A stretch of 64,000 nucleotides of DNA from assembly GCA_014360755.1 (NCBI GenBank), contig JACIWX010000003.1:283678-347677 (forward strand), read 5' to 3'. Under the pieces are notes generated by a model that made no database searches, was not told where the DNA came from, and saw only the letters and a program-made list of their open reading frames with translations. Below are positions 20,701 to 55,417 of the stretch, piece by piece; position 1 is the stretch's first letter; each line of letters begins with the position of its first letter. The stretch comes from Chloroflexota bacterium (lineage in GTDB: Bacteria > Chloroflexota > Anaerolineae > UBA2200). A program made the translations under genes and the position numbers.

Positions 20701-21035
20701 ATTTCTTCTCCTTATCATACCAGCAATCAGTGGGTAGCGCGCCTTAACAAAAAACCCTCTCACCCAAGGGGCGAGAGGGGACTCACGCGGTTCCACCCAA
20801 TTTCGACAACCAGGTTTGGTTGTCCTCCTTATGGCCGATAACGGGTGCCTCCGGGGCTCCATACTCTGCTCAGCCTGCATTTCCGGAGCCGGCTCTCAGG
20901 TGGTTTTCGCTGGGCTCCCGTTGAGAAGGCTCGCAGTCTATGACCTTCCCTCCCTGGAACGGCTCCTCCAGCTACTCGTCCTGATCACAGCCGATAAACA
21001 AAACCCACGGACGTACCGTGGGCTTCGTCGCCTTT
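20701..21035 (-). promoter_or_regulatory. T-box riboswitch leader of thrS (specifier ACC, Thr)
   Basis: On the minus strand: stem-I GAGTAG element; specifier loop GCGAAAACCACC (GAA-ACC-A, Thr codon); T-box sequence AAATTGGGTGGAACCGCG at 20805-20788; intrinsic terminator CCCTCTCGCCC-CTT-GGGTGAGAGGG followed by TTTTTTGTT at about 20783-20746. Confidence 0.75.
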
Positions 21036-21763: not shown

Positions 21764-21844
21764 GGGGAAGTGTCGGAATGGTAGACGAGCGTGACTTAGG
21801 ATCACGTGGAGCAATCCGTGAGAGTTCGAGTCTCTCCTTCCCCA
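21764..21844 (+). tRNA. tRNA-Leu (anticodon TAG), class II with long variable arm
   Basis: Manual fold: acceptor GGGGAAG/CTTCCCC, D-arm TCG-GAATGGTAGA-CGA, anticodon stem CGTGA/TCACG with loop CTTAGGA, variable stem GGA/TCC, T-arm GAGAG-TTCGAGT-CTCTC, discriminator A. CCA is not encoded. Confidence 0.9.
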
Positions 21845-21861
21845 TCAGGTTAGGTGAAAAA

Positions 21862-21933
21862 GCGGAAGTGGCTCAGCGGTAGAGCATCTCCTTGCCAAGG
21901 AGAGGGCCGCGGGTTCGAATCCCGTCTTCCGCT
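21862..21933 (+). tRNA. tRNA-Gly (anticodon GCC)
   Basis: Acceptor GCGGAAG/CTTCCGC, D-arm GCTC-AGCGGTAG-AGC, anticodon stem TCTCC/GGAGA with loop TTGCCAA, T-arm GCGGG-TTCGAAT-CCCGT, discriminator T. Confidence 0.9.
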
Positions 21934-31316: not shown

Positions 31317-33410
31317 ATGAGCAACCTAAGCGACCGATCTACATTGCCTGCGGAACCGCTTCCTCCATGTCAGGTTGCCTGTCCAGCACACACCGATGTC
31401 CGGGGCTATATCCACGCCATCGCGCGCGGAGATTTTGAAGAAGCCTACCGTATAGCGCGCGAACCCAATCCCTTGCCTTACATCTGCGGCAAGGTTTGTG
31501 CTCATCCCTGTGAGACCGAATGCCGACGCGGTGACGTTGATGAGCCCGTCGCCATCTGTGCGCTGAAGCGTTTCGCGACAGAGCAACACGACCTGAGCAA
31601 AGGCCATGCGCCAGGGCTAACCGTCGCAGAGCCAAAGGAGGAAAAAGTAGCGATCGTCGGCTCAGGCCCCGGCGGCCTGACCGCTGCCCATGACCTGGCA
31701 CGCATGGGTTATAAAGTTACCGTCTTCGAAGCTTACCCCAAAGTTGGCGGCATGATGCAATATGGCATTCCTCTCTATCGCTTGCCGCGTGAGACCATTG
31801 ACCTTGAAACGGCCCCCCTGAAGGATCTAGGCGTCGAGTTCGTCACTAATCAGCGGGTTACCGATGTAGACGCCTTGCTCGCAGATGGCTACAAAGCAGT
31901 ATTCCTGGCCGTTGGTTCTCATGTGGGACGCAAGCTACGCATTCCCAATGCAGACCTGCCTGATGTCTGGTTGAACACGGAATTCCTGCGGCGGGTGGCT
32001 TTGGGAGAGAAGATTGACCTGAGAGGACGCCACGTGCTGGTGCTGGGAGGAGGCAACGTAGCCATAGATGTGGCACGCACAGCATTGCGCCTGGGTGCAG
32101 CCGAGGTTTCCATGACTTGTTTGGAGAGCTGCACCACACAGCCAGCACATCCTTGGGAAATCAAGGAGGCTGTGGAAGAGGGCGTGCAGATGTTCCATGA
32201 CCGCACATTCAAAGAAATTGTCGCTGAGAATGGCAAAGTCAAGGGCGTGCGCTGCGTCAAGGTGAACTTCCGTGGCTTCTTGCCAACTGGTGCGCCGGAC
32301 ATGGATGAATTCCCCGAAACAGAGCATGTCCTCCCGGCAGATTTGGTCATTTTTGCGATTGGCCAGGGCCCTGACCTCAGTTTCCTGCCCCAAGATGGCT
32401 CTATTGCTCAGACACCACGGCGCACAATCCAAGTCAATCCTGTTACCTTGGCTACTACCAAACCAGGCGTCTTTGCCGGTGGGGATGCCGTCACTGGTGT
32501 GGGATTTATTATTGATGCTATTGCAGCAGGGCATCGCGCTGCTCGCTCCATAGACGCTTACCTGCGAGGTCTTGATCCGGCTTCTGTGCAGCCTCCTGAG
32601 CCGCAGAAGCTCAATGATCTGCAACAAAAGACCATCTCCCACATCCGCCACCTGAAGCGCGAAGAGATGCCCATGTTGGATGTCAACCAACGCAAGTTCA
32701 CCTTTGACGAAGTATACCTAGGCTATACGGAGGCACAGGCTATCCGCGCCGCGCATCGCTGCCTTACTTGTGGCGCGGGTGCGCGAGTAGAGGAAACCAA
32801 GTGCATTGCTTGCCTCACCTGCGTGCGGGTCTGCCCTTATGAAGTGCCATTACTGGCGCGTGGCACTGCAAATGTGCCTGTAGATCAGTGTCAAGCCTGT
32901 GGCATTTGCGCGACCGAGTGCCCGGCGAAAGCGATCTCGATGAAACTCTATTCCGATGAGGACATGATCAAACAGATTCGCGATGCGGTGCGCAAGGCCA
33001 AGTACAATGGCGAACCGGCCATTGTAGGCTTTGCCTGTCGCTATTGTGCCTATGCTGGCGAGGATGCGAACGTAGTCAAAGCAAGCCTGCCGGCGAATGT
33101 GCAAACCATTGACGTGCTGTGCACGGGGAAGGTAGATGCTCTGTACCTGCTGAAGGCCTTCGAATTTGGTGCCGATGGCGTATTTGTGGCAGGTTGTCTG
33201 GAAGGCGAGTGTCACAATGACAAGGGCAATGTCCACGCTGCAAAACGCGTGGCTTACGTAAAAGGATTGCTGGATGAACTCGCTCTGGGCAATGCACGGC
33301 TGGAAATGTTCCACATGTCCCCTGACCAATGCGCCAACATGGCCGAGGTCGTCAGCACACTGATTACAAAGGTCAAAGAATTGGGACCTAGTCCGGTGAG
33401 GAGAAGCTAA
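31317..33410 (+). CDS. fusion oxidoreductase: GltD/NfnB-like FAD-NAD(P) domain + 2x[4Fe-4S] ferredoxin + MvhD-like domain
   Basis: N-terminal Cys cluster (CQVACPAHTD...CGKVCAHPCETEC) and dinucleotide fold GSGPGGLTAAHDLARMGYKVTVFE. Two CxxCxxCxxxCP motifs (CIACLTCVRVCP, CQACGICATECP). The C-terminus (VGFACRYCAYAGED...LCTGKVD...) matches the methyl-viologen-reducing hydrogenase delta-subunit family. Confidence 0.7.
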   Translation: MSNLSDRSTLPAEPLPPCQVACPAHTDVRGYIHAIARGDFEEAYRIAREPNPLPYICGKVCAHPCETECRRGDVDEPVAICALKRFATEQHDLSKGHAPGLTVAEPKEEKVAIVGSGPGGLTAAHDLARMGYKVTVFEAYPKVGGMMQYGIPLYRLPRETIDLETAPLKDLGVEFVTNQRVTDVDALLADGYKAVFLAVGSHVGRKLRIPNADLPDVWLNTEFLRRVALGEKIDLRGRHVLVLGGGNVAIDVARTALRLGAAEVSMTCLESCTTQPAHPWEIKEAVEEGVQMFHDRTFKEIVAENGKVKGVRCVKVNFRGFLPTGAPDMDEFPETEHVLPADLVIFAIGQGPDLSFLPQDGSIAQTPRRTIQVNPVTLATTKPGVFAGGDAVTGVGFIIDAIAAGHRAARSIDAYLRGLDPASVQPPEPQKLNDLQQKTISHIRHLKREEMPMLDVNQRKFTFDEVYLGYTEAQAIRAAHRCLTCGAGARVEETKCIACLTCVRVCPYEVPLLARGTANVPVDQCQACGICATECPAKAISMKLYSDEDMIKQIRDAVRKAKYNGEPAIVGFACRYCAYAGEDANVVKASLPANVQTIDVLCTGKVDALYLLKAFEFGADGVFVAGCLEGECHNDKGNVHAAKRVAYVKGLLDELALGNARLEMFHMSPDQCANMAEVVSTLITKVKELGPSPVRRS

Positions 33411-33411
33411 C

Positions 33412-34080
33412 ATGATCAAAGCACAACAAAAACCCATCGCCGAGATCAAGGCATTGATCGCTCCATACCACAGAATCCTGATCCTTGGCTGTGGTACATG
33501 TGTTACCATCAGTTTTGCCGGTGGCGAGAAAGAGGTTGGATTGCTGGCTTCCAGCCTGCGCATTGCTTCGGCTATGGAGGGACAGGATAAAATATTCGCT
33601 GAAGCAACTGTGCAGCGCCAGTGTGAATGGGAGTTCATTGATGCTGTTGCGGAACAGATTCAGCAAGCAGATGCCGTTCTCTCTCTCGCTTGTGGCATTG
33701 GGGTGCAAGCCCTAGCCGAGCGCTATCCCGATAAGGTTGTCCTGCCTGGTGTGAATACCACCTTCCTAGGCATGGCGGTGGAGCACGGCGTCCTGGTAGA
33801 GCGTTGCCGTGCCTGCGGTGATTGCATCCTGGGCTTGACTGGTGGCGTGTGTCCTATTGCGCGCTGTGCCAAAAACCTGCTCAATGGCCCCTGTGGTGGC
33901 TCGCAGAATGGCAAATGCGAGGTTAATCCGGAGCTTGACTGTGCCTGGCAGCTCATCTATGACCGCTTAGCCAGATTGGGACAACTAGACCGCTTGGCCG
34001 CCCTGATGCCATACAAGGATTGGTCTAAGGACTATGACGGCGGCCCACGTAAGATTGTAAGGGAGGATCTGAGGCTATGA
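33412..34080 (+). CDS. metV: MetV-like methylene-tetrahydrofolate reductase small/C-terminal-domain subunit
   Basis: 222 aa. Cys-rich (GCGTC...CRACGDC...CPIARC) zinc-ribbon-containing protein immediately upstream of, and overlapping, metF, as in acetogen metV-metF pairs. Confidence 0.65.
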   Translation: MIKAQQKPIAEIKALIAPYHRILILGCGTCVTISFAGGEKEVGLLASSLRIASAMEGQDKIFAEATVQRQCEWEFIDAVAEQIQQADAVLSLACGIGVQALAERYPDKVVLPGVNTTFLGMAVEHGVLVERCRACGDCILGLTGGVCPIARCAKNLLNGPCGGSQNGKCEVNPELDCAWQLIYDRLARLGQLDRLAALMPYKDWSKDYDGGPRKIVREDLRL

Positions 34081-35000
34081 AAGTCGGCAGTAATCTCGAA
34101 AAAGTGCTCACCAGCGGCTACTTTGCCGCTACTGGGGAATTGGGCCCTCCCAAAAGCGCTGACCCAGGAGTGATCCGCCATAAAGCGAGCCTGCTCAAGG
34201 GGTACGTGGACGCGGTCAACATCACCGATAACCAGACAGCCATTGTCCGTATGTCGAGCATCTCTGTGGGCATCATGCTATTGCAATTGGGGCTAGAGCC
34301 CACGATTCAAATGACGTGTCGTGACCGCAATCGCTTGGCGATTCAATCCGACCTGCTGGGGGCAGCTGCCCATGGCGTGAAGAACCTGCTCTGTCTGACA
34401 GGCGACCACCAACGCTTTGGCAACCATCCCACAGCCCGTGGGGTATACGACCTGGATTCCATCCAGCTGATCCAGATGGTCAAAACGATGCGCGATGAGA
34501 AAAAGTTCGCTTGCGGCGAAGAAATGGATGTCGAGCCACGTTTCTTTATCGGGGCAGCGGAAAACCCCTTTGCAGACCCATTTGATTACCGGCCTTATCG
34601 CTTGGCGAAGAAGATTGCGGCAGGAGCGGACTTTATACAGACTCAGCTTATTTACAATGTACCCAAGTTCAAAGAGTTCATGAAGCGGGTTTGTGATCTA
34701 GGTTTGCACGAAAAGTGTTACATCCTGGCTGGGGTTGGTCCCATTAAAAGCGTCGGTATGGCTCGTTATATGCAGACCAGCGTCCCTGGTATGGACGTGC
34801 CTGAAGAAATTGTGGCACGGTTGAAGGGGGTGCCAAAGGATCAAGTGCGCAAAGAGGGCATCAAGCAGTGCGCGGACATTATCTCTGAAATACGGGAGAT
34901 CCCAGGCGTCGCCGGCGTACACGTTATGGCCATCGAATGGGAAGAGGCCGTGCCCGAAATCCTGGAACTGGCAGGACTGCTGCCACGGCCAAAGGTATAA
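34077..35000 (+). CDS. metF: 5,10-methylenetetrahydrofolate reductase
   Basis: MTHFR TIM-barrel motifs (VNITDNQTAIVRMSS, LCLTGDH). 307 aa. Confidence 0.85.
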   Translation: MKVGSNLEKVLTSGYFAATGELGPPKSADPGVIRHKASLLKGYVDAVNITDNQTAIVRMSSISVGIMLLQLGLEPTIQMTCRDRNRLAIQSDLLGAAAHGVKNLLCLTGDHQRFGNHPTARGVYDLDSIQLIQMVKTMRDEKKFACGEEMDVEPRFFIGAAENPFADPFDYRPYRLAKKIAAGADFIQTQLIYNVPKFKEFMKRVCDLGLHEKCYILAGVGPIKSVGMARYMQTSVPGMDVPEEIVARLKGVPKDQVRKEGIKQCADIISEIREIPGVAGVHVMAIEWEEAVPEILELAGLLPRPKV

Positions 35001-39433: not shown

Positions 39434-39721
39434 GTGAGTATGCCGGATACAGTGCGATTGCATGCCAGGGTATACGGCCTGGTCCAAGGTGTGAGTTTCC
39501 GCTACTATACCTTGCGTAAGGCGCAAACGTTGGGGCTGACTGGCTATGTGCGGAATCGCTGGGATGGCAGTGTCGAGGTCGTAGCAGAGGGCGAACGCGC
39601 GGCGGTAGATCAACTGCTGTCCTGGTTACATGTGGGTCCACCTTCCGCTGAAGTGGAACGTGTTGAGTTTGAGTGGCAAAAACCACTGGGCGAGTTCAGG
39701 CAGTTTGAGGTGCGATTCTAA
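39434..39721 (+). CDS. acyP: acylphosphatase
   Basis: [14 protein letters not shown]...[13 protein letters not shown] is the acylphosphatase signature. 95 aa. Confidence 0.8.
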
Positions 39722-40944
39722 TGCGTCGCAACCCAGAACGTCTAGCCTGGGCGGTCCTGTGGATCTCCTTTGCACTCTTCTGCACATTGACCATCTCCAT
39801 CCCCTTGGGCATCCGTTGGTACCTGACCCATGCCACAAAAGCCTATGAAGCAAAGGTCACTTGCCTCGAAGGTACAGCGGTTGTGGAAGATCCACAACAT
39901 GGTACTGCGAAACCTGTGCTGAAAGGTGAGACTATCTCGATACCCGAAGGCACGGTGGTAAGCGTAGATGAAACAGCCCAGGCCGTCGTCACCTTCTTCG
40001 ATCAATCCTTCGTGCGCCTTTTTCCTCGAACTAGCATCGCCATACAACGCATGCGCACGCCGCGCTTCAATGCAAGTCCACTCCCTGCCCAAATTGTGAT
40101 CTACGCCAAAGGTGGAAGGCTCTGGGCAAGCACTGTGCTCCGCGGATCTTCCCCTGTAGAATTCCGCGTGGAAAGCCTACAAGCGCATACCGTGCTTGCC
40201 GAAGATGGTGGCTACACCGTAGAGGTGAGCAACGAACGCACAGAAGTGATTGTGCATCGTGGGATGGCAGAGATTTCAGCAGCCTCGCTCTCTCAGCCAA
40301 GTGCTGCAGCCAAGGTAACTCTTAGTTCGCGACAGCGTACGGTGGTGGAAATTGGCAAACCACCACTGGCTCCGCTAAAGGCTGAGCGCGATTTGCTCGT
40401 CAATGGCGATTTCACAGCCCCATTGAGCACAGGGTGGACCGCTTTCAACGACCAAGGTGGCGATGGCGGCGAAGTAGATGGCACGGTGTCACTAGTGGTA
40501 GATGAAGGACGACGGGCGGTGCGCTTCTACCGTACTGGCGGTGAGTACAACCACTGCGAAACAATCATTGAACAAGAACTCAACCGGGATTTGCCCGAAC
40601 CCCTCACTATCCTCAAAGTGCGGGCAACGATCAAACTAGTCTATCAAAGCCTGTCTGGAGGAGGCTATCTCAGTTCCGAATATCCCTTAATGATCCGTAT
40701 TCGATACCGAGACAAGTACCTCAGCGAAAACGAATGGATTCGTGGCTTTTACTATCAGAACGTAAATAATAACCCAACGATGAATGGCCAGGAGATACCG
40801 CAAAACAAATGGTATTTCTATGAATCGGAGAACCTGTTAGATATCTTGCCCATCGCTCCCCGTCAAATCTTGTGGCTGCGCGTGTATGCGTCGGGTTGGA
40901 GCTATGAAAGCCTGGTTTCACAGATCAGTCTGATTGTTGAGTAA
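39721..40944 (+). CDS. hypothetical membrane-anchored protein with FecR-like beta domain (low confidence)
   Basis: N-terminal TM helix. ISIPEGTVVSVDETAQAVVTFFDQSFVRLFPRTSIAI resembles a FecR/anti-sigma sensor domain. The C-terminal 200 aa are unassigned. Confidence 0.4.
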   Translation: MRRNPERLAWAVLWISFALFCTLTISIPLGIRWYLTHATKAYEAKVTCLEGTAVVEDPQHGTAKPVLKGETISIPEGTVVSVDETAQAVVTFFDQSFVRLFPRTSIAIQRMRTPRFNASPLPAQIVIYAKGGRLWASTVLRGSSPVEFRVESLQAHTVLAEDGGYTVEVSNERTEVIVHRGMAEISAASLSQPSAAAKVTLSSRQRTVVEIGKPPLAPLKAERDLLVNGDFTAPLSTGWTAFNDQGGDGGEVDGTVSLVVDEGRRAVRFYRTGGEYNHCETIIEQELNRDLPEPLTILKVRATIKLVYQSLSGGGYLSSEYPLMIRIRYRDKYLSENEWIRGFYYQNVNNNPTMNGQEIPQNKWYFYESENLLDILPIAPRQILWLRVYASGWSYESLVSQISLIVE

Positions 40945-45064: not shown

Positions 45065-45403
45065 GTGCCAGTGGGAAAAGTAGTTTTCGATGTGCCGAAA
45101 ATGTACGCCGATCACCACGTTGAGGCAGTGCGCAAGGCTCTGCTAGCATTGCCGGGCATTGAGGAGATTATAGCCAGCAGCGCCCTAAAGCGCGTGGTGG
45201 TTCGTTACGATACAGAGCGCCTCAACCCAGGCGCAATCGAACAAGCCTTGCAGGCTGCAGGGTATGCGCCAGGAGAGGAGTGGGAACTACCCAAGTTACC
45301 GGAAGGCAAAGAAGACCATTCTCCATGGTTCCAGGTCATCCCAAGGGTAACGACAACGGATAGGCGCGATCTGGAGATGTCCGGAGATTTCCGAAAATAT
45401 TAA
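45065..45403 (+). CDS. HMA-fold (ferredoxin-like beta-alpha-beta-beta-alpha-beta) small protein lacking CxxC; candidate metallochaperone of the acs operon
   Basis: GTG start 5 nt after GAAGGAGGGG. VVFDVPKMYADHHVEAVRKALLALPGIEEI...VVVRYDTERLNPGAIEQALQAAGYAP matches heavy-metal-associated domain topology with M-T-C-x-x-C replaced by M-Y-A-D-H-H. It is the first gene of the operon, directly upstream of cooS. Confidence 0.5.
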   Translation: MPVGKVVFDVPKMYADHHVEAVRKALLALPGIEEIIASSALKRVVVRYDTERLNPGAIEQALQAAGYAPGEEWELPKLPEGKEDHSPWFQVIPRVTTTDRRDLEMSGDFRKY

Positions 45404-45446: not shown

Positions 45447-47414
45447 ATGACAGACCAAAAATCTATAGACCCAGCGGTGTGCGATTTGCTGGAGATATGT
45501 GAATCCGAAGGCATTTCCACCGCTTTTGACCGCGCAGAGCAGATGAAACCATGCCCGATTGGTAGCAAAGGGGCTTGTTGCAAGAACTGCGCCATGGGTC
45601 CCTGCCGTCTCACCAAAGAGGGCCAAGTAGGCATTTGCGGAGCTACCATTGACACCGTCGCAGCGCGCAACTTTGCACGCATGGTTGCGGCTGGTTCGGC
45701 TGCCCATTCCGACCACGGTCGGGACATGGCGTTGACTCTTTTGGCAGCGGCTACAGGGCATGCTCCAGATTACAAGATACGCGATGTGCGCAAACTCTAT
45801 GAGGTTGCCTCATTCCTGGACGTGAAAACAGATGGCCGCCCAGTCAATGATATCGCTAAGGAGGTGGCTGAGAAGGCGCTGATTGAATTTGGCCGCCAGC
45901 AAGGGAATATCATCTACCTCCAACGCGCACCGCGTAAGCGTCAGCAAATTTGGCAAAACCTGGGCATTGCCCCACGCGGGATTGACCGCGAAGTGGTGGA
46001 TATCATGCACCGCACCCATGCTGGAAACGATCAGGATTATAAGAGTTTGCTGATGTCCTCGCTGCGCACTGCCCTGGCTGACGGCTGGGGTGGTTCGATG
46101 CTTTCCACCGACATTACGGACATCCTCTTTGGCTCTCCTGTGCCGCTTGCGGCCAGGGCGAACATGGGCAACCTTAGCGAAGACCAGGTGAACATTGTCG
46201 TCCATGGCCATGAGCCAACCCTGTCCGAAATGATCCTAGTGGCGGTCAATGACCCGGAGATGATCGAATATGCTAAATCCAAGGGCGCCAAAGGCATCAA
46301 CCTAACCGGCATTTGTTGTACCGCCAACGAAACGTTGATGCGTCAGGGCGTGCCCACTATTGGCAATTTCCTCAGCCAGGAACTGGCAATTGCCACCGGT
46401 GCGATAGACCTGATGGTGGTGGATATCCAGTGCATCATGCAAGCCTTGGCTCCTCTGACCAAGCAGTTCCATACCCTCTTGGTGACCACTTCTGCAAAGG
46501 CGCACATTGACGGTGTTACTCATATCGAATTCGACGAGCACCGCGCTCTGGAAATTGCCAAGAATATCGTCAAAATGGGCATTGACAATTTCGTCAACCG
46601 CGGGGATGTGCATATTCCCAAAGATATTGACCAAATGGTCGTTGGTTTCTCACACGAGTATATCAACTACGCCTTGGGCGGTTTTTACCGTGGTTCCTTC
46701 CGTCCCTTGAATGATGCCGTCATCCAGGGGCGGCTGCGCGGCGTTGCGGGGGTGGTGGGGTGCAATAATGCGCGCACTTGCCAGGATGCAGCCCATACGT
46801 ATATTGTGCGCGAACTGATCAAGAACGATGTGCTAGTCGTGATGACTGGGTGCGGAGCAATCGCTTGCGCCAAATATGGCTTCCTGTCTCCGGAGGCAGC
46901 GCAGTACGCCGGACCAGGCTTGCGCGAGATCTGCGAGGCGGTGGGCATCCCGCCGGTGCTGCATATGGGCAGTTGCGTGGATAACACGCGTATCCTCACT
47001 GTGCTCAGCCAAATGGCCACCGAAGGCGGCTTGGGCGAAGACATTGCTGACATCCCAGGCGTTGGCTTTGCCCCGGAATGGATGAGTGAAAAAGCTATTT
47101 CCATTGGTTGTTACTTTGTCGGTTCTGGCGTATACACCATCTTTGGCAGCGAATCGCCTGTAGCCAACAGCCCCGCTGTGGTGCGCTTTATGAGCGAGGG
47201 TTGGGAAGAACACGTGGGCGGCAAGTTGGAATTTATCCCTGATCCAGAGGAAGCCGTCCGCAAAGCCTTGGAGCACATTGATAAGAAACGCGCTGCTCTA
47301 GGGTTAGTAGAGTACGACCCCACACGTTATGGTCAGAGCGGCGATGCGCTTATGCTCAAGCTGCTAGAGAAGGTAGAAGAGGGGACGCTCAACCTATACA
47401 GCGCCAAGTTATAG
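45447..47414 (+). CDS. cooS: carbon monoxide dehydrogenase catalytic subunit (Ni,Fe-CODH; AcsA/CooS)
   Basis: N-terminal B- and D-cluster Cys (CPIGSKGACCKNCAMGPCR) and C-cluster ligands (HGHEP..., CTGC...). 655 aa. ATG at 45447 after GAGAAGGAG. Confidence 0.9.
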   Translation: MTDQKSIDPAVCDLLEICESEGISTAFDRAEQMKPCPIGSKGACCKNCAMGPCRLTKEGQVGICGATIDTVAARNFARMVAAGSAAHSDHGRDMALTLLAAATGHAPDYKIRDVRKLYEVASFLDVKTDGRPVNDIAKEVAEKALIEFGRQQGNIIYLQRAPRKRQQIWQNLGIAPRGIDREVVDIMHRTHAGNDQDYKSLLMSSLRTALADGWGGSMLSTDITDILFGSPVPLAARANMGNLSEDQVNIVVHGHEPTLSEMILVAVNDPEMIEYAKSKGAKGINLTGICCTANETLMRQGVPTIGNFLSQELAIATGAIDLMVVDIQCIMQALAPLTKQFHTLLVTTSAKAHIDGVTHIEFDEHRALEIAKNIVKMGIDNFVNRGDVHIPKDIDQMVVGFSHEYINYALGGFYRGSFRPLNDAVIQGRLRGVAGVVGCNNARTCQDAAHTYIVRELIKNDVLVVMTGCGAIACAKYGFLSPEAAQYAGPGLREICEAVGIPPVLHMGSCVDNTRILTVLSQMATEGGLGEDIADIPGVGFAPEWMSEKAISIGCYFVGSGVYTIFGSESPVANSPAVVRFMSEGWEEHVGGKLEFIPDPEEAVRKALEHIDKKRAALGLVEYDPTRYGQSGDALMLKLLEKVEEGTLNLYSAKL

Positions 47415-47498: not shown

Positions 47499-49781
47499 AT
47501 GTCAAGGTATATTGCAACCCGTGCTATTCGCGGCGCGAATCTGATCGTTGCCGAAGCCGAGAGGATGCTGAAAGAGGCTATTGCAGAACTGGGGCCAGAT
47601 ACGCCGGTCAAATTTACCAACACCGCTTATTATCTCCCCGTTATCCTGGCTTTCACCGGGCGTGAGGTGAGCAAACTGGGTGACCTTGTGCCCGTTATTG
47701 AGGATGCAAAGCGGATTTTACATCCTATCCCGGGCGATAAACTGTGGTTACCCTACCTTGGCGAGACGCTGGACTGCGGTATGGCCACGCTCCTCGCTGA
47801 GGAAGCCATCGAGGGCATCCGCTTCGCGCGTGGTCTGGAGCCACAACCGATTACCTGGGAGGGCAGTTATATCCCCAGCACCAGTTTCACCTCCCCTGAT
47901 ATGGAAGCACAAGCCGGGAAGCGCCTCAATGGGCCTATTGATGACATTCAATTGCGCGCTTGGGGCATTCAACTGGTAGATGGCCGCATGCCCGGCTTTG
48001 CTGCGATCGTTGGCTGCGCCAAGAGCAATGAAGTAGCAGTGCAAATTGTGCGCGAACTGCAGCAGCGCAACATCCTCGTCTTCCTGTGTGGCAACGTCAA
48101 TGGACGCAGTATTATCCACCAATTGATGGAAGAAGGGGTCGAGATGGGTTATGACACCTATATCATCCCCTTCGGTACGGACACCATCGCTGCGATCTAC
48201 CCTCTCGGTTTTGCCGCACGCAGTGCACTGACCTTTGGCGGGCTGAAACCAGGCCAGGCGCGCGAAATCCTCCTGTATAACAAGTACCGTGTTTTCGCCT
48301 TTGTGTTAGCCCTGGGTGAAGTAGATGACCTGAAATACGCCACTGCTGCAGGTGCAATTAACTATGGCTTCCCGACGATTGCCGATACCGTGATCCCCCA
48401 GATATTGCCTACCGGCGTTACAACCTACGAGCATGTCATCAGCATGCCCTTTGATGACATCGAGGGGAAAGACGACCTGGAACGTGCGAAGAAGCTGGTG
48501 CAACGCTGCATCGAAGTGCGCGGGGTGAAAATTAAGATCACCGAAGTGCCCATTCCCGTGCCCTATGGTTCTGCCTTTGAAGGCGAACGTGTGCGCAAGG
48601 CAGATATGCGCGTGGAATTTGGCGGCAAGTACAGTCGCTGCTTCGAGTACTTGAAGATGTCCGACTTTGACGCGGTGGAAGATGGCAAGATCACCGTGGT
48701 CGGGCCCGGTTTCGAAGATGTGCCGCCAGAGGGTTCGATGGACATGGGCATTGTGGTCGAAGTAGCCGGGCGCAAAATGCAGGAGGACTTTGAGCCTGTG
48801 CTGGAGCGGCAAATTCACTACTTCATCAATGGCGCATCTGGCATCCAGCACATTGGCCAGCGCGATATCGCCTGGATCCGCATCAGCAAAGCGGCAGCAG
48901 AGAAGGGCTTTAAGCTGGAACACTTTGGGAAAATTCTGTATGCCCGCTTCCATGGGGACTTTGGCGCCATTGTGGACAAAGTGCAGGTTACCATCTACAC
49001 TGACAAAGCCAAGATGGAGGAGTGGCTAGCGAAAGCACGCGAAGCCTACGATCGCCGCAACAGGCGTCTGGCAGATATGACTGATGAGTCGGTAGAAGAA
49101 TTCTACAGTTGTACTCTGTGCCAGAGCTTTGCCCCCAACCATGTCTGCGTTGTGTCACCAGAACGACTGGGGCTGTGTGGCGCGTACAACTGGCTGGATT
49201 GCAAAGCCTCCCATCAGATTAACCCTACCGGGCCGAATCAACCCATCCGAAAAGGTACTTGCGAGGACCCTGTTTATGGCATTTTCAGCGGGGTGAATGA
49301 ATTCGTATACCAGCATTCTCATCAGTCCGTGCAGCAGGTTTCCATGTACTCCATCATGGTGAACCCCATGACCGCCTGCGGCTGCTTCGAATGCATTGCG
49401 ATGGTCATCCCCGAAGCCAATGGCATTATGGTCGTTTCCCGCGAAGACCCGAGCATGACCCCTGCTGGCATGACCTTCTCCACGCTGGCTGGCATGGCGG
49501 GTGGTGGATTGCAGACACCTGGCGTGATGGGGCATGGCAAGTATTATCTGACAAGCAAAAAGTTCATTTCTGCGGATGGTGGCTTCAAGCGCGTGGTTTG
49601 GATGTCTTCCTTCCTCAAAGAGACCATGGCTGAGGAGCTCAAGGCGGTTGCCGAGCGCGAGGGCGACCCAGATCTCATTGACAAGATCGCTGATGAACGG
49701 GTAGCGACCACTGTAGATGAGTTATTGCCCTACCTGGAGGAGAAGGGGCATCCTGCGTTGACCATGCCGCCGTTGTTCTAA
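47499..49781 (+). CDS. acsB: acetyl-CoA synthase (CO-methylating acetyl-CoA synthase complex beta subunit, AcsB)
   Basis: 760 aa. A-cluster Cys-Gly-Cys region (...CGCFEC...) and the conserved ACS N-terminal domain. Confidence 0.9.
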   Translation: MSRYIATRAIRGANLIVAEAERMLKEAIAELGPDTPVKFTNTAYYLPVILAFTGREVSKLGDLVPVIEDAKRILHPIPGDKLWLPYLGETLDCGMATLLAEEAIEGIRFARGLEPQPITWEGSYIPSTSFTSPDMEAQAGKRLNGPIDDIQLRAWGIQLVDGRMPGFAAIVGCAKSNEVAVQIVRELQQRNILVFLCGNVNGRSIIHQLMEEGVEMGYDTYIIPFGTDTIAAIYPLGFAARSALTFGGLKPGQAREILLYNKYRVFAFVLALGEVDDLKYATAAGAINYGFPTIADTVIPQILPTGVTTYEHVISMPFDDIEGKDDLERAKKLVQRCIEVRGVKIKITEVPIPVPYGSAFEGERVRKADMRVEFGGKYSRCFEYLKMSDFDAVEDGKITVVGPGFEDVPPEGSMDMGIVVEVAGRKMQEDFEPVLERQIHYFINGASGIQHIGQRDIAWIRISKAAAEKGFKLEHFGKILYARFHGDFGAIVDKVQVTIYTDKAKMEEWLAKAREAYDRRNRRLADMTDESVEEFYSCTLCQSFAPNHVCVVSPERLGLCGAYNWLDCKASHQINPTGPNQPIRKGTCEDPVYGIFSGVNEFVYQHSHQSVQQVSMYSIMVNPMTACGCFECIAMVIPEANGIMVVSREDPSMTPAGMTFSTLAGMAGGGLQTPGVMGHGKYYLTSKKFISADGGFKRVVWMSSFLKETMAEELKAVAEREGDPDLIDKIADERVATTVDELLPYLEEKGHPALTMPPLF

Positions 49782-49911
49782 ATCAGAGTGGCAAGCTTGG
49801 CTCCCACACTGCACTTCATCTACGGAGTAAGAGGAGCCCAGGCAGCGTGAAAATCATATCGCCTAGACACGGTACACTGCTAAGTTTGAAAAATCTAAGG
49901 AGATGTAGAGA

Positions 49912-50298
49912 ATGGCTGAATTCGTTAAGGATCTGATGCGTCATGGGGCTGTTACTTGTGGTTTGGATACCACCGTTAAAGAAATTGCCCAAATCATGGT
50001 GTTTAACCGCATTCGCTATGTCGTTGTAACGGATGATCATGGAGCCGTCGCTGGCATTATCTCAGCGCGCAGTATTCTGAAGGCATGGGGCAAAGATTTG
50101 GAAAAGACCACGGCAAAAGATATCCTTCTACCGTACACGATCACGACCACTCCTGACACACCTCTTGCAGAAGCCATTAAGCTCATGCAGCAGAGGCGTA
50201 TCCAGCATTTAGTTATTGTCAGCGACAGCCCACGACCCAAGCGAGTGGTAGGTATCTTGAGTGCTTCCGATATTGTCCGGTATATGGCCAGAACCTAA
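49912..50298 (+). CDS. CBS-pair domain protein (paralog 1 of 3)
   Basis: Two CBS motifs (VTCGLDTTVKEIAQIM...RYVVVTDD; ...HLVIVSD...VGILSASDIV). Confidence 0.75.
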   Translation: MAEFVKDLMRHGAVTCGLDTTVKEIAQIMVFNRIRYVVVTDDHGAVAGIISARSILKAWGKDLEKTTAKDILLPYTITTTPDTPLAEAIKLMQQRRIQHLVIVSDSPRPKRVVGILSASDIVRYMART

Positions 50299-50347
50299 AA
50301 AACCGATAGAGAGATGGAGTGCAAATAGGCTCATGATGGAGGAGAAA

Positions 50348-50764
50348 ATGGCTTTGGTTAGAGATTATATGCATCGTGGAGTGATCACTTGCCATTTGGA
50401 CACTCCGGTCAAAGAAATTGCCAAGATTATGGATGCCAATAACATCCGCAGTGTAGTGGTTACCGATGACCGTGGTGAAGTGTGGGGGATTGTTTCACTC
50501 ATCAGCATCCTCAAAGCGTGGGGGAAAGACTTGGAAAAGCTGACCGCCGAGGATATCCTGCAACCATACACCGTTACTATTTCCCCAGAGTCGCCGATCG
50601 AAGAGGCAGTAAAACTGCTGCAGAAGAAAAGGATCGAGCACTTGGTGATTGTTCATCCTGGAGTGGTGCGGCGAGCCGTGGGCATTCTCACGACCTTTGA
50701 CATTATTCAGCACATGGCTGGGATGCCTGCAGGTACCTACCGCGCAAGTATGCAATTGGGATAA
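50348..50764 (+). CDS. CBS-pair domain protein (paralog 2 of 3)
   Basis: About 55% identical to paralog 1 (MALVRDYMHRGVITCHLDTPVKEIAKIM...). ATG at 50348 after GGAGGAG. The ORF-track start at 50261 overlaps paralog 1. Confidence 0.7.
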   Translation: MALVRDYMHRGVITCHLDTPVKEIAKIMDANNIRSVVVTDDRGEVWGIVSLISILKAWGKDLEKLTAEDILQPYTVTISPESPIEEAVKLLQKKRIEHLVIVHPGVVRRAVGILTTFDIIQHMAGMPAGTYRASMQLG

Positions 50765-50817
50765 CAAGGCGATCGAGAAGGGATTGCTCGAGGGTTTTGG
50801 ATGAAGGGAGCAGGGTT

Positions 50818-51243
50818 ATGGCAATGAACGCAAAAGAAAAAATGATGGAAAAGCGAGTGGAAGATGTCATGCACTATGGCGTGATCACTTGCCGCACGGA
50901 CACCCTGCTGAAAGAGGTGGTGCGCATCATCACAGACACTGATGTGCATGCCCTGGTTGTCATCCACGACAATGGCAATGTTGCTGGCATCGTCTCACAC
51001 ATGGATTTGCTCCGGCTGTACGGCCACAACTTGCTCGAATACAAGGCAGAGGACGTGATGACGCCCAATGTCATTACCATCAGCCCAGAGGCAACTGTCA
51101 AAGAAGCGGTGGACTTGATGCTGAAGCACAATATCCGCCGGCTCCTGGTCACGGAAAAGACACCCGAGGGCGAGCGCCCCATAGGCGTGATATCCACAAC
51201 TGATGTAATCAGGGACATGCGCGAGCAGCCCTGGTTTTGGTAA
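50818..51243 (+). CDS. CBS-pair domain protein (paralog 3 of 3)
   Basis: Same architecture (VEDVMHYGVITCRTDTLLKEVVRII...). ATG at 50818 after GAAGGGAG. Confidence 0.7.
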   Translation: MAMNAKEKMMEKRVEDVMHYGVITCRTDTLLKEVVRIITDTDVHALVVIHDNGNVAGIVSHMDLLRLYGHNLLEYKAEDVMTPNVITISPEATVKEAVDLMLKHNIRRLLVTEKTPEGERPIGVISTTDVIRDMREQPWFW

Positions 51244-51308
51244 AAGGAGAGGCAGGATGCAGGATGATATCCTGCATCTTGTATCTTTGGGAAAGGAGAC
51301 ATTGCACA

Positions 51309-52277
51309 ATGCCCATGGCAGTAGAAATCCCGAAAGAGAAATGGACAGGCAAAGTTAGAGAAGTAAAATTGGGTGCGACCGCTGCCGAAGGAGGCACGCG
51401 GCAAAAGACCGTAACGGTGGGCGGAGAGAGTACCCTACCCTTTCTCACGTTCGAAGGGGATATGCCCAATCCACCTGCTATTGCCGTCGAAGTACAGGAT
51501 CGCTATCCCAGTGACTGGTCTGCCGTCCTGAAAGCAGCGTGGGGAGATGTCCTGAATGACCCCGCCGCTTGGGCAAAAAAGGCGGAAGAATATGGTGCCG
51601 ATATCGTTGCCCTCAAACTGCAGAGTGCCCACCCTGAGGCTGGCAATACAGACGCGGCACATGCTGCCGCCACGGTAAAGGCAGTACTGGCTGCCACCGG
51701 GCTGCCTTTGATTGTCTATGGCCCAGGACAAGCCGAGAAGGACAATGAAGTATTGGTAGCCGCCGCAGAAGCGGCAAAGGGCGAGCGCATTGCCTTGGGC
51801 AACTGCGAGGACAAAAACTATCGCACTATCGTAGCGGCAGCCCTAGCACATGGCCACTTAGTGGTCGCCAAGACCCCTATTGACGTCAACCTAGCGAAAC
51901 AATTGAATATCCTCATTAGCGATATGCGCTTGGATCTCGACCGGATCCTGATGGATCCAACTACGGGTGCGTTGGGCTATGGCTTGGAATATACGTACTC
52001 GGTTATGGAGCGCCTTCGCTTGGCGGCGTTGACCGGCGACAGCATGACCCAGCAGCCAATGATCTGCACGGTGGGCGAAGAAGCCTGGCGTGCCAAAGAG
52101 AGCAAGGTGAACGAGGGCGTGCCTGCTGCCTGGGGGGATTGGGAGCGCCGCAGCAAGAATTGGGAAGTGCTTACTGCCAGCACGCTGATCCAGGCAGGAG
52201 CGGACATCGTCGTGTTGCGCCATCCGGAAAGCATCCAGTTAGTCAAACAAGCCATTTCGCAGTGGATGGCGCGGTAA
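51309..52277 (+). CDS. acsD: corrinoid iron-sulfur protein small subunit (CODH/ACS delta subunit, AcsD)
   Basis: TIM-barrel CFeSP small-subunit family (KLGATAAEGGTRQKTVTVGGES...). It precedes acsC. ATG at 51309 after GGAAAGGAGA. Confidence 0.8.
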   Translation: MPMAVEIPKEKWTGKVREVKLGATAAEGGTRQKTVTVGGESTLPFLTFEGDMPNPPAIAVEVQDRYPSDWSAVLKAAWGDVLNDPAAWAKKAEEYGADIVALKLQSAHPEAGNTDAAHAAATVKAVLAATGLPLIVYGPGQAEKDNEVLVAAAEAAKGERIALGNCEDKNYRTIVAAALAHGHLVVAKTPIDVNLAKQLNILISDMRLDLDRILMDPTTGALGYGLEYTYSVMERLRLAALTGDSMTQQPMICTVGEEAWRAKESKVNEGVPAAWGDWERRSKNWEVLTASTLIQAGADIVVLRHPESIQLVKQAISQWMAR

Positions 52278-52355: not shown

Positions 52356-53702
52356 ATGGGACTGAGCGGGCTTGAAATTTACAAGCTGTTACCCAAAACC
52401 AATTGCAAAGAATGCGGCCAGCCTACTTGCTTGGCTTTTGCGATGAAATTAGCCGCCAAGCAGGCTGAACTGTCGGCTTGCCCTTACGTTTCTGAAGAAT
52501 CAAAAGCCAAACTTGCAGCCGCCGCCGCCCCGCCAATTCGCTTGGTCACAATTGGCACAGGGGACAAGAAATTGGAAATCGGCAATGAAACCGTGCTCTT
52601 CCGCCACGACAAAACCTTCTACCATCCGCCGGGACTGTTCATCCGCCTCAAAGATACCATGCCGCTTTCAGAGTTTGAGGCAATGGTGGAACGCATCCGT
52701 GACTGGGGAGTCGAACGGGTTGGCATTCCACTGTGGGTAACCGGCGTGGCGGTCGAAAATACGTCAGGTGATGCAGAAACTTTCGCCAAGTACGTCGCTG
52801 TAGCGCAGGAGAAAATGGCGCGGCCGCTCGTTCTTATCGCTTCGAACCCCGCTTCTATGGCTGCAGCCCTGCAACAGACAGATGGTTCTGCCCCTCTGGT
52901 CTATGCTGCCACGGCGGACAACTGGCAAGCAATGGCGGAATTGGCTGCGAAGCACAAAGCGCCCATTGCAGTGCGGGGCAATGGCGATCTGGGTGGGCTG
53001 GCAGATCTGGCGGAAAAAGTCAAGGGCGCGGGCGTGGAGGACATCGTCCTCGATCCGGGCATTCGTGATCCGCACGGCACACTGGTAGCGCTCACCCAGT
53101 TGCGCCGCCTCGCCTTGAAGAGCAACTTCCGCCCCCTGGGTTATCCGATTATCACCTTCCCCGGTGAAGGGGCAAATTCCGAAGAGGAAGAAGCCATTCA
53201 GGCTGCCCAGCATATCGCCAAATATGCGGGTGTGATTGTCCTCGATCACTTTGACCCAGCCACGGTCTACCCGCTGATGACACTGCGGCAAAACATCTAT
53301 ACCGACCCGCAAAAACCCATCCAAGTGAGCCCTGGCCTGTACGAGATCTCCAATCCTACTCCCGATTCGCCGCTGCTGGTGACCACCAATTTCTCCCTCA
53401 CCTATTTCAGTGTCGCAGGCGAGGTAGAGGGAAGCGGAAAGCCCACCTGGTTGCTCATTGTGGATTCGGAAGGCATGTCGGTGCTAACTGGCTGGGCTGC
53501 GGGGAAATTTGATGCGGAGAAAATTGCCAAGTCAGTACAGCAGTTCAACGTGCCCAGCAAAATTAGCCACAAGAAAATTGTTATCCCCGGCCTCGTGGCG
53601 AGCATCTCGGGTGAATTGGAGGAGGAACTGCCCGGCTGGGAAGTCCGTGTTGGGCCACGTGAAGCGATAGACATACCTGCTTACCTAAAGACTTGGAACT
53701 GA
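52356..53702 (+). CDS. acsC: corrinoid iron-sulfur protein large subunit (CODH/ACS gamma subunit, AcsC)
   Basis: N-terminal [4Fe-4S] motif (CKECGQPTCLAFAMKLA...CP) and 448-aa length. Confidence 0.85.
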   Translation: MGLSGLEIYKLLPKTNCKECGQPTCLAFAMKLAAKQAELSACPYVSEESKAKLAAAAAPPIRLVTIGTGDKKLEIGNETVLFRHDKTFYHPPGLFIRLKDTMPLSEFEAMVERIRDWGVERVGIPLWVTGVAVENTSGDAETFAKYVAVAQEKMARPLVLIASNPASMAAALQQTDGSAPLVYAATADNWQAMAELAAKHKAPIAVRGNGDLGGLADLAEKVKGAGVEDIVLDPGIRDPHGTLVALTQLRRLALKSNFRPLGYPIITFPGEGANSEEEEAIQAAQHIAKYAGVIVLDHFDPATVYPLMTLRQNIYTDPQKPIQVSPGLYEISNPTPDSPLLVTTNFSLTYFSVAGEVEGSGKPTWLLIVDSEGMSVLTGWAAGKFDAEKIAKSVQQFNVPSKISHKKIVIPGLVASISGELEEELPGWEVRVGPREAIDIPAYLKTWN

Positions 53703-53748: not shown

Positions 53749-54834
53749 TTGGAGTCTGGTCATTGGGAGTCCTACTCGGGAGCAGAGTCCGTGCTATATT
53801 TTGTGTCCGTAAAGTTAGCCCTGGGCTATCTGCTTTTCTCCTTCCTGTCCGCCCTAGGGATCCTGCAGTTGGTTGCTACGCGTTATCGTTTGCGCGGCTT
53901 GGCTTTTCTCGATCATGCGCAGCACGGCGCGAAAGGTTACGCCCTGGCTGCATTGCTGATCGTCTGCGGGGCGTTGCTCTTTTTCGCAGGGCAATGGCAC
54001 GCTATTCTCACGCCAGGACCGGCCGGTAGCGAACTGGCTTTCCTTTTTGGACTCAGCGCCACGGGAGCGCTAGCGGTTACCTGTATTGTTACATCCATTG
54101 TACAAAAACGGCGTCCTGGTTTCCTGACACAAGCCATTACTGACCAAGGCGAGACAGTAACGGTCGGACGTGGAACAGGACGCCTTTACCTACCACATAA
54201 CCTGAACGCTCCTGCACCTGCTGTGGTCCTTGTGCCAGGTTTGAACAACAATGAAGGGGACCTCACGATCCTGGCACACCAAATGGCAGAGGAGGGCTTC
54301 GCTGCGCTGGTGATTTGCCTGGATAGAGGATCGTGTTTGTATCCGGAGGTACTGACCATTGTGCCAGCAGCCATATCCATGCTTAGTAAGCGACCTGAAA
54401 TAGATGAACAGCGGCTGGGCATTGTAGGGCATGGTTTGGGCGGGGATCTCGCTATCCGCGCAGCGAGTACGGATAAGCAAATCAAAGCAGTGGCGGCTTT
54501 GGCTCCTGTCCTTGTGGAGGTGCAGCCAAGCCTGGATTTGTTGCGCGAAATGCCCTATCTAGAGGCATTGCGCTGGGCACGAGACCGGAGCCGCGCTAAC
54601 TTGCGCGCTGCATTGAACGCGCTCGAATACGGAAGCAGGATTGCTCCTAGGTCCTTCCTCCTGTTGTATGGAGCAGAGGACCGCTTGGTAAGCAGAACAC
54701 CCACGGAAGCGTGGCAAGCGCAACAAGCCACCTCCATGCGTTTGGAAGTGATCGAAGGTGTGGGGCATTTTGATCTGGTAAAGCATCCGGTAGCGGTGCG
54801 AGTCCTGATACAGTGGTTGAGGGAGCATCTGTAA
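53749..54834 (+). CDS. membrane-anchored alpha/beta-hydrolase-fold protein (nucleophile elbow reads GHGLGG; possible pseudo-hydrolase)
   Basis: 3-4 N-terminal TM helices, then an alpha/beta-hydrolase core (VVLVPGLNNNEGD...LGIVGHGLGGDLAIRAA...GVGHFD). The Gx-S-xG nucleophile position appears to be occupied by Gly. Confidence 0.55.
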   Translation: MESGHWESYSGAESVLYFVSVKLALGYLLFSFLSALGILQLVATRYRLRGLAFLDHAQHGAKGYALAALLIVCGALLFFAGQWHAILTPGPAGSELAFLFGLSATGALAVTCIVTSIVQKRRPGFLTQAITDQGETVTVGRGTGRLYLPHNLNAPAPAVVLVPGLNNNEGDLTILAHQMAEEGFAALVICLDRGSCLYPEVLTIVPAAISMLSKRPEIDEQRLGIVGHGLGGDLAIRAASTDKQIKAVAALAPVLVEVQPSLDLLREMPYLEALRWARDRSRANLRAALNALEYGSRIAPRSFLLLYGAEDRLVSRTPTEAWQAQQATSMRLEVIEGVGHFDLVKHPVAVRVLIQWLREHL

Positions 54835-54838
54835 ACGC

Positions 54839-55417
54839 ATGGCTATTGATTGGGCTCTGTTTCAATTCGCCAATGGGCTGGCAGGCCGTTCGCCTATTCT
54901 CGATCGCATCATCCAGATACTCATGAATGACTATGCCTTGACCACGGCGATGGTGCTGGTGCTGTTTGCGTTGTGGTTCAGCGGCAGCAGTCTAGAAGCA
55001 CGAGAGCGGAATCAGCGTGCTGTGCTTTCCACTATCGTTGCCGTTTTGCTGGCTAACCTTATCGTCAAGGCATGCAACTTGATCTTCTATCGGCCGCGTC
55101 CTTTTGCCTATCACGAGGTAACGCTGCTGTTCTACCATCCATCGGACTCTTCTTTTCCCAGCAACGCGGCTACGGTGGGCTTCTGCATTGCGGCTTCTGT
55201 CTGGCTGTTTAACCACAAGGCGGGCTTTCTTTTGTACACCCTGTCTTGTCTGCTTGCCCTGGCACGGGTATGCGGCGGCGTGCACTATCCCAGCGACATC
55301 CTGGGTGGGCTGTTGGTCAGCACGTTTTCCGCATGGCTAGTGATTAGGAAATGGCACTTCCTAGACCGCTGGTGGATGGCGATCATCCACTGGCTACGAC
55401 GCTGGTTATTGGCTTGA
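54839..55417 (+). CDS. PAP2-superfamily (type 2 phosphatidic acid phosphatase-like) membrane protein
   Basis: Motif I-like KACNLIFYRPRP and motif III ARVCGGVHYPSD (R-x5-H-x3-D) are present. The motif II position reads FPSNAA instead of PSGH. Confidence 0.6.
   Translation: MAIDWALFQFANGLAGRSPILDRIIQILMNDYALTTAMVLVLFALWFSGSSLEARERNQRAVLSTIVAVLLANLIVKACNLIFYRPRPFAYHEVTLLFYHPSDSSFPSNAATVGFCIAASVWLFNHKAGFLLYTLSCLLALARVCGGVHYPSDILGGLLVSTFSAWLVIRKWHFLDRWWMAIIHWLRRWLLA

Follow-up and report, generated by a model that had tools for sequence, protein, structure and literature searches.

Stand-alone CBS-pair genes recur between acsB and acsD in Chloroflexota Wood-Ljungdahl clusters and may encode trans-acting subunits of the CODH/ACS machinery

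Introduction

Three short consecutive genes, here called CBS1, CBS2 and CBS3, lie between acsB and acsD in a 64,000-nucleotide stretch of DNA from a Chloroflexota bacterium (GTDB lineage Anaerolineae; UBA2200; assembly GCA_014360755.1, contig JACIWX010000003.1, positions 283,678 to 347,677), which is referred to below as the window. Each codes for a protein with two CBS domains, and the question that they raise is what such proteins would do in the midst of an operon for carbon monoxide dehydrogenase/acetyl-CoA synthase (CODH/ACS). CODH/ACS is among the oldest carbon-fixing enzyme systems, and its known accessory proteins, CooC/AcsF and RACo, serve in metal insertion and cofactor reactivation; we know of no allosteric metabolite-sensing subunit for the bacterial enzyme. 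To our knowledge the acs clusters of Moorella, Carboxydothermus, Acetobacterium and Clostridium contain no CBS gene, and a literature search found no paper describing CBS-domain proteins in acs, CODH/ACS or Wood-Ljungdahl clusters. A first-pass annotation of the window had taken the three genes for a tandem triplication whose products might form a hetero-oligomeric sensor, gating acetyl-CoA synthesis by energy charge. Here we ask whether the genes are intact, how widely and in what combinations they occur, and what their products might bind and control.

Results

CBS1, CBS2 and CBS3 are intact and separately translated

The interval 49912-51243 of the window is exactly filled by three consecutive open reading frames (ORFs) on the + strand (Table 1) and, as the first-pass annotation had stated, each codes for a two-CBS protein of between 125 and 145 amino acids (aa). 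The likely ATG start codons, which are the first positions listed for these genes in Table 1, are preceded by the Shine-Dalgarno-like sequences AAGGAG (CBS1), GGAGGAG (CBS2) and AAGGGAG (CBS3); the GTG at 50261 that an ORF list gave as the start of CBS2 is probably not the true start. Counted from these starts, the protein lengths agree with those of the genes predicted in independent public assemblies, both of the same organism and of related ones, and CBS2 is 100% identical to protein P0001, annotated 'MAG: Chloroflexi bacterium'. Two stretches of each protein match Pfam PF00571, with scores of 86.8-96.4 bits where the gathering cut-off is 24 bits. CBS is the sole Pfam domain matched, and the chains stop 0-14 residues past the second CBS motif; the C-terminal tails of CBS2 (GMPAGTYR) and CBS3 (the aromatic QPWFW) are conserved. 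The motifs earlier quoted as shared are present, and the three proteins are related paralogues; however, the spread of pairwise identity is wider than the 40-55% first given, at 60% for CBS1-CBS2, 34% for CBS1-CBS3 and 39% for CBS2-CBS3. Similarity at the DNA level is detectable for CBS1-CBS2 only (65%).

It might be supposed that the three ORFs are pieces of one multi-CBS gene broken by frameshift or assembly error, as they are adjacent and on the same strand and CBS3 finds its best PDB match by sequence in MJ1225, a four-CBS protein. Against this, each ORF codes for an entire Bateman module and has a start, a ribosome-binding site (RBS) and a stop to itself, the genes are separated by spacers of 49 nt (CBS1-CBS2) and 53 nt (CBS2-CBS3), and they are read in different frames (1, 2 and 1). 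Other assemblies of the species (loci L001-L003 and L099) carry the triplet with unchanged gene lengths, as do L093 (81% DNA identity) and L004-L006 (about 74%; these include NCBI GCA_002348045.1); altogether at least five independent assemblies carry them, in addition to relatives at 74-81% DNA identity, and single-copy orthologues are 129-141 aa long. When the genes were compared with those of L093, dN/dS was 0.020 for CBS1, 0.022 for CBS2 and 0.027 for CBS3, and 0.021, 0.010, 0.014 and 0.019 for acsA, acsB, acsD and acsC, respectively. The CBS genes are therefore constrained as strongly as the catalytic subunits, and values of about 0.02 argue against pseudogenes. We conclude that a single fragmented gene is refuted by the frames, the separate RBSs and stops, the conserved lengths and dN/dS, and we give that explanation practically no credence. 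The other way in which the first-pass reading might have failed, a lack of conservation elsewhere, is contradicted by the recurrence of the genes in independent assemblies and in relatives, under strong purifying selection.

CBS-pair genes recur in the acsB-acsD slot

CBS1-3 are embedded in a complete single-strand Wood-Ljungdahl cluster, and the flanking acsA, acsB, acsD and acsC all score above the curated NCBIfam cut-offs (Table 1), which bears out their earlier placement inside an acs operon. With the C-terminal domain of AcsB as query, we searched a genome set in which each GTDB species is represented once, and took the closest 80 loci (the best 80 of at least 586 AcsB matches), nearly all of them labelled Anaerolineae or Chloroflexota; the survey covers these closest AcsB relatives. 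The ORFs of the 80 loci were searched by BLAST and with a hidden Markov model built from the CBS-pair family. It can be seen that directly after acsB or before acsD there is one CBS-pair gene in 39 loci, two in three loci and none in 31, with seven loci that could not be evaluated. At least one such gene thus occupies the slot in 42 of the 73 evaluable loci, an association that is far beyond chance, and the search for CBS genes in other acs clusters, proposed at the outset as a check, gave a positive answer.

Family members chosen by sequence alone (P0047, P0260 and P0218) likewise adjoin acsD. At one locus, L097 from a Thermoflexales metagenome-assembled genome, about 2.4 kb of unrelated genes, including a DUF433 gene and small opposite-strand ORFs, stand between acsB and the CBS gene (positions 4565-7000 of that locus). 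The CBS gene there stays immediately 5' of acsD despite the insertion after acsB. When pairwise distances among CBS proteins were compared with those among the AcsB proteins, the Mantel r was 0.74, a value reached by none of 2000 permutations, which indicates co-inheritance with the operon. In the most abundant branch of the family, which falls into 1264 clusters at 90% identity, the proteins are about 170 aa long and have a conserved tail at the C-terminus (DLRDLGIxAERxSP...RRD). The neighbourhoods of homologues at about 35% identity (P0051, P0053 and P0057) showed no acs linkage. We conclude that CBS1-3 belong to an uncharacterised Chloroflexota CBS-pair family that fills the acsB-acsD slot.

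The slot holds a single gene, a tandem pair, or both

In a bootstrapped neighbour-joining tree of 55 sequences, CBS3 shared a clade (bootstrap value 100) with the genes that the nearest relatives carry in single copy. CBS1 and CBS2 fell in a separate clade, also with a value of 100, that splits into a CBS1 and a CBS2 subclade. The content of the slot in related loci follows the same division: CBS3 occurs on its own in L094, L013, L015 and L009, CBS1 and CBS2 occur without CBS3 in L014, L100 and L104-L109, and all three are present in the window, L093 and L004. Locus L094, which has 83% DNA identity across acsA and acsB, lacks exactly the segment corresponding to 49783-50823 of the window. A recent triplication in situ can be rejected, since DNA similarity is confined to CBS1-CBS2, CBS3 has its own clade, and near relatives have CBS3 alone or CBS1 and CBS2 alone. 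The phylogeny that had been called for thus replaces the proposed triplication with a different history, in which CBS3 is the usual single-copy slot gene of the lineage and CBS1-CBS2 is a distinct, older tandem pair.

CBS1 and CBS2 behave as partners in several respects. In all 10 metagenome loci that could be evaluated CBS2 comes after CBS1, the stop codon of CBS1 overlaps or adjoins the start codon of CBS2 in L004, L014, L108 and L109, and in four lineages CBS1 is basic (isoelectric point, pI, 9.2-10) and CBS2 neutral to acidic. Because of this constant co-occurrence, frequent stop/start overlap and complementary charge, the hetero-oligomer of the first-pass annotation remains plausible for CBS1 with CBS2; a three-way oligomer is not required, because close relatives carry CBS3 or CBS1+CBS2 alone.

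Adjacent genes for a CBS1-like protein (128 aa) and a CBS2-like protein (148 aa) were also found outside any acs cluster, at 9612-10447 of L007 and 3640-4475 of L008, and the CBS1 and CBS2 subclades of the tree each include one member of this pair. CBS1-CBS2 therefore behaves as a two-gene unit that is able to live elsewhere. A link of CBS1/2 to PAP2 and PMT_2 genes, suggested by L004 and L008, was considered and rejected, as L094 keeps the hydrolase and PAP2 genes of the acs cluster (see below) and has no CBS1 or CBS2.

The non-acs pair bears on an alternative explanation, namely that the operon merely carries along CBS-pair proteins of a general stress or energy-state response, whose targets have nothing to do with CODH/ACS, for example in a Usp-linked stress response or in ribosome hibernation of the kind served by archaeal CBS factors. 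The pair stands beside a Usp gene, the homologues at about 35% identity lie in stress-type contexts (cation ATPase, Usp and BON genes), the archaeal hibernation factors Sri and Hib are among the PDB sequence matches, and the gene is missing from 31 of the 73 acs operons. However, 42 of the 73 species have the slot occupied, the divergence of the CBS proteins parallels that of AcsB, and the gene remains beside acsD where 2.4 kb has been inserted after acsB. The archaeal hibernation factors (Sri, Hib and AHA; PDB 9ZNF, 9SR9 and 9E6Q) are ribosome-binding proteins of 270-655 aa with several CBS motifs, whereas CBS1-3 have two motifs per chain; those of 270-392 aa match at E 1e-13 to 1e-16 over a single CBS pair, a generic likeness between chains that differ about twofold in length (270-390 aa for the hibernation factors). 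We therefore consider proteins with unrelated targets improbable.

Ligand motifs are canonical in four of six positions

The ribose-binding motif of CBS domains, G-h-h-S/T-x-x-D/N, lies at the start of the last helix, and its Asp binds the ribose hydroxyls. In CBS3 both motifs are canonical (GIVSHMD and GVISTTD). In CBS1 the first motif reads GIISARS, with Ser in place of Asp, and the second is canonical (GILSASD); in CBS2 the first reads GIVSLIS, again with Ser for Asp, and the second is canonical (GILTTFD). The Asp is thus found in four of six motifs, and all orthologues of CBS1 and of CBS2 keep the Ser of the first motif. In the analysis of ligand residues that had been proposed for the three paralogues, the canonical motif is thus present at both sites of CBS3 and at the second site of CBS1 and of CBS2, and absent from the first site of the latter two; a canonical motif is necessary for binding and is not proof of it. 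The strands that carry basic residues read I-R-Y/S-V in CBS1 and CBS2, and V-H-A-L and I-R-R-L in CBS3. We take these basic residues to stand at the strand positions that contact phosphates in AMPK gamma and, on this mapping, which is inferred and not drawn from a computed structural superposition, they may serve as phosphate contacts in CBS1-3.

The sole Cys of each of CBS1-3 sits in a GV-x-T-C strand. All 41 of the CBS3-family sequences compared carry this Cys, and over 54 acs-linked sequences chosen by position its conservation is 90% or more. We considered this Cys as an acs-specific signature and rejected it, as the string MHxGVITC is also present in distant homologues that are not acs-linked; these homologues came from a word-seeded search, which is biased to shared 5-mers. 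The Cys is accordingly treated as a family feature only.

A further alternative is that CBS1-3 are not nucleotide sensors but accessory subunits with a structural, assembly or redox-responsive role in the acs machinery: they might, for example, serve the corrinoid protein or ACS as a scaffold or protective cap, or be a thiol redox switch that acts through the GV-x-T-C Cys. The synteny and selection evidence would fit such subunits as well as it fits ligand-binding ones. In addition, this Cys is the only one in each protein and is unchanged throughout the CBS3 family, the clade-specific conserved tails (QPWFW, GTYR and DLRDLGIxAER...RRD) resemble docking peptides, and the long-tail branch stays in the slot although its canonical second ligand motif has been lost. 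Against this stand the canonical ribose-binding motifs of CBS1-3, which are retained under strong constraint, the occurrence of MHxGVITC away from acs genes, which makes the Cys not acs-specific, and the presence of one Cys per chain, insufficient to bind a cluster alone. We regard accessory subunits without a sensing role as unlikely, if the more serious of the two functional alternatives.

AcuB is the closest functional precedent for CBS1-3

Structure prediction was made for CBS3 alone among the three proteins. The AlphaFold2 (AF2) model (pLDDT 90.5, pTM 0.79) has the standard Bateman fold, with alternating helix and strand elements in two repeats, and gave Foldseek TM-scores of 0.7-0.86 with solved CBS pairs. 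The best sequence and fold matches were ST2348, PH0107, MJ0922, MTH1622, MJ0100, MJ1225, the CBS pair of CcpN, CBSX1/2 and Hrp1, together with 2026 structures of AcuB with AMP, ADP, ATP or Ap4A among the top fold matches; by structure, the closest matches are Bateman modules, either stand-alone or excised. When CBS1-3 were scanned against NCBIfam, only sub-threshold, domain-level matches were found.

AcuB, from the acu operon of Bacillus and Geobacillus (PDB 9S4V-9S52 and 9QS7), shares with CBS3 a Bateman module and is one of the top structural neighbours of the CBS3 model. This protein of Bateman and ACT domains senses adenylates (energy charge) and Ap4A; the Bateman module binds AMP, ADP, ATP and Ap4A, with Arg33, His34, Arg51 and Lys120 in contact with the nucleotides. 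It inhibits the deacetylase AcuC and thereby controls AMP-forming acetyl-CoA synthetase (PMC13121692, PMC13039410). It is thus a precedent for a Bateman protein that tunes acetyl-CoA formation (PMC13121692), acting in trans on a partner enzyme and encoded beside the pathway that it controls. However, the C-terminal ACT domain of AcuB, which contacts AcuC, has no counterpart in CBS1-3, Foldseek sequence identity to CBS3 is 21-26%, the pathway is different, and the neighbours of CBS1-3 are acsB and acsD and not acuA or acuC. As they have neither an ACT domain nor acu neighbours, CBS1-3 are not members of the AcuB family, and we conclude that AcuB is their closest functional precedent and not a relative.

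Other known systems resemble CBS1-3 in part. The stand-alone CBS-pair proteins ST2348, PH0107, MJ0922, MTH1622 (1PBJ), Mycobacterium tuberculosis Hrp1 and Arabidopsis CBSX1/2 are likewise single Bateman modules of about 125-140 aa; their solved structures are dimeric, CBSX2 has been solved with AMP, and their roles are unknown or partly known. Unlike CBS1-3 they are not in an acs cluster and have no QPWFW or GTYR tails, and identity is 19-32%. AMPK gamma is a four-CBS adenylate sensor that regulates its partner in trans, and CBS3 aligns to CBS4 of gamma-1; a CBS1-CBS2 heterodimer with unequal sites would be similar to its asymmetric four-site disc. The gamma subunit is eukaryotic, has a kinase as partner and carries its four CBS motifs on one chain, whereas CBS1-3 have two per chain. 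Among bacterial stand-alone CBS-pair proteins, the c-di-AMP receptor CbpB/DarB controls partner enzymes in a manner that depends on its ligand state. With its model (NCBIfam NF041630) CBS1 scored 26.9 bits against a cut-off of 125, so that CBS1-3 are not CbpB members, and CBS2 and CBS3 gave no match at E <= 1e-5.

The surrounding cluster

In the window the cluster runs from a 407-aa ORF through fchA, folD, fhs, a small HMA-domain ORF, acsA and acsB to CBS1, CBS2, CBS3, acsD and acsC, and ends with genes for a membrane-anchored alpha/beta-hydrolase, a PAP2 phosphatase, RACo, cooC and acsE (Table 1). The start of acsA was adopted from the genes called in L001 and L002; acsD starts with ATG after a GGAGA RBS. 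The acsB-acsD interval was scanned for terminators and none was convincing, the single hairpin having no T-run. This hairpin, a perfect inverted repeat (GATGCAGGAT-GAT-ATCCTGCATC), is placed after the CBS3 stop and ahead of the acsD RBS. Where L001 and L093 carry substitutions in it, pairing is preserved only via G-U, and for this reason we read it as an RNA hairpin and not a DNA operator; it is probably an intercistronic RNA structure involved in mRNA stability or processing. No Rfam family matched at the gathering threshold near 49.8-51.3 kb, and a riboswitch or other known RNA in the spacers was rejected.

Table 1. Position of CBS1-CBS3, neighbouring genes and other features in the window.
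Feature	Position	Strand	Remarks
CBS1	49912..50298	+	128 aa, pI 9.6 (basic); stand-alone Bateman module; Pfam CBS x2, E 2.5e-26
CBS2	50348..50764	+	138 aa; stand-alone Bateman module; Pfam CBS x2, E 1.2e-24
CBS3	50818..51243	+	141 aa, pI 5.7 (acidic); stand-alone Bateman module; Pfam CBS x2, E 1.2e-27
acsA	45447..47414	+	Ni-CODH catalytic subunit; TIGR01702, 625 bits (cut-off 478)
acsB	47499..49781	+	acetyl-CoA synthase, upstream neighbour; NCBIfam NF040764, 995 bits (cut-off 800); Pfam CdhC, ACS_CODH_B_C
acsD	51309..52277	+	corrinoid iron-sulfur protein small (delta) subunit, downstream neighbour; NF003376, 429 bits (cut-off 280)
acsC	52356..53702	+	corrinoid iron-sulfur protein large (gamma) subunit; NF003195, 579 bits (cut-off 306)
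Hairpin	51256..51278	+	10-bp stem
HMA-domain ORF	45065..45403	+	112 aa; Pfam E 2.4e-9
Hydrolase and PAP2 genes	53749..55417	+	between acsC and RACo gene
407-aa ORF	39721..40944	+	no Pfam match
FlpD (MvhD)-fusion, MetV-like and MetF genes	31317..35000	+	15 kb upstream
502-aa ORF	28059..29567	+	Baseplate_J-like, E 6.9e-7 (weak)
Probable thrS	18901..20880		class II aminoacyl-tRNA synthetase with tRNA_SAD
T-box/thrS region	20764..20997	-	
T-box/thrS region	21764..21933	+	

Several other genes of the region deserve mention. The HMA-domain ORF lies between fhs and acsA, and is also called 5' of acsA in L001, L002, L004, L009, L093 and L094. Where the usual metal site reads GMxCxxC it has PKMYADHHV, with a His-His pair and no Cys, and it may be a metal (possibly Ni) chaperone for the acs cluster. 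The hydrolase, which has a hydrophobic N-terminus, and the PAP2 phosphatase are inserted between acsC and the RACo gene, and the pair is kept in L001-L004, L014, L018, L023, L027, L093, L094, L100 and L104; the acs cluster of L004 additionally holds PMT and PMT_2 glycosyltransferases. Such membrane- or lipid-type genes are unexpected for an acs operon. The 407-aa ORF heads the fchA-folD-fhs-acs cluster and has the same place in L001 and L004. Upstream of the cluster, a fused Fer4_20/Pyr_redox_2/Fer4/FlpD (MvhD) flavoprotein is followed by a MetV-like protein (DUF5981) and MetF, which look like the methylene-tetrahydrofolate reductase module of the Wood-Ljungdahl pathway. Further away, a T-box leader (102 bits) was found 5' of the probable thrS, with two tRNA genes nearby, and the 502-aa ORF lies between alaS and a YceG-family gene.

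Discussion

The recurrence of these genes in the acsB-acsD slot suggests that CBS1-3 may regulate the CODH/ACS complex. What the first-pass annotation observed is confirmed, and its interpretation is upheld in part. On balance we favour the reading that they are separately translated Bateman genes, in a slot that holds the CBS3 type, the CBS1+CBS2 pair or both, and that they encode trans-acting, adenosyl-ligand-binding subunits of the CODH/ACS-corrinoid machinery. The parts of this reading are held with different firmness. A functional tie of the CBS-pair proteins to the acs machinery is probable; for a CBS1-CBS2 heterodimer we find the case evenly poised; and it is with some hesitation that we put the proteins forward as sensors of adenosyl ligands.

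If this reading is right, CBS1-3 would be small regulatory or adaptor subunits whose ligand contains adenosine, an adenine nucleotide being the most plausible, and which signal their state of occupancy to a partner encoded in the operon. CBS3 would form a homodimer with two canonical sites per chain and CBS1-CBS2 a heterodimer with one canonical site per chain, and these would represent one four-CBS disc in two versions, alternative or additive. The slot would then carry one dimer's worth of Bateman modules, as a gene for a homodimer or as a pair of genes for a heterodimer, and the window would have both.

A number of observations weigh against the proposal that we favour. As 31 of the 73 evaluable operons have no CBS gene in the slot, the CBS protein is not essential to CODH/ACS. 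In the long-tail branch of about 170 aa the second ligand motif is lost and reads AAxxSYxH, and adenosyl binding may therefore not be taken for granted throughout the family. CBS pairs occur in a great many proteins of diverse function, and the closest solved relatives match at the level of the generic fold only. The CBS1/2-like pair of L008, which is followed by PMT_2, PAP2 and Usp genes, has a non-acs location. Finally, intergenic distance was uninformative as to whether acsB or acsD is the partner, with medians of 92 and 85 nt, respectively.

A bolder version of the proposal would make the CBS proteins stoichiometric regulatory subunits of a Chloroflexota-type CODH/ACS-corrinoid complex, through which the synthesis or cleavage of acetyl-CoA, or else the ATP-dependent reactivation of the corrinoid protein, would respond to the adenylate or the CoA/acetyl-CoA pool. 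CBS1-CBS2 would then be a split, asymmetric heterodimer akin to AMPK gamma that is able to replace the CBS3 homodimer. We consider it rather unlikely that this version holds in full.

Should the CBS-pair proteins be unrelated to acs function, what has been described here would be a conserved curiosity of gene order involving a very common domain. The Bateman protein of the slot is nevertheless present in over half of the Anaerolineae-type operons, its long-tail branch by itself comprises over 1,000 sequence clusters, and it is under constraint equal to that of the catalytic subunits, which makes it a concrete candidate for the control of CODH/ACS in a group of abundant, mostly uncultured anaerobes. 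The pattern of one gene, two genes or both would moreover offer a natural experiment in the evolution of a heterodimer from a homodimer.

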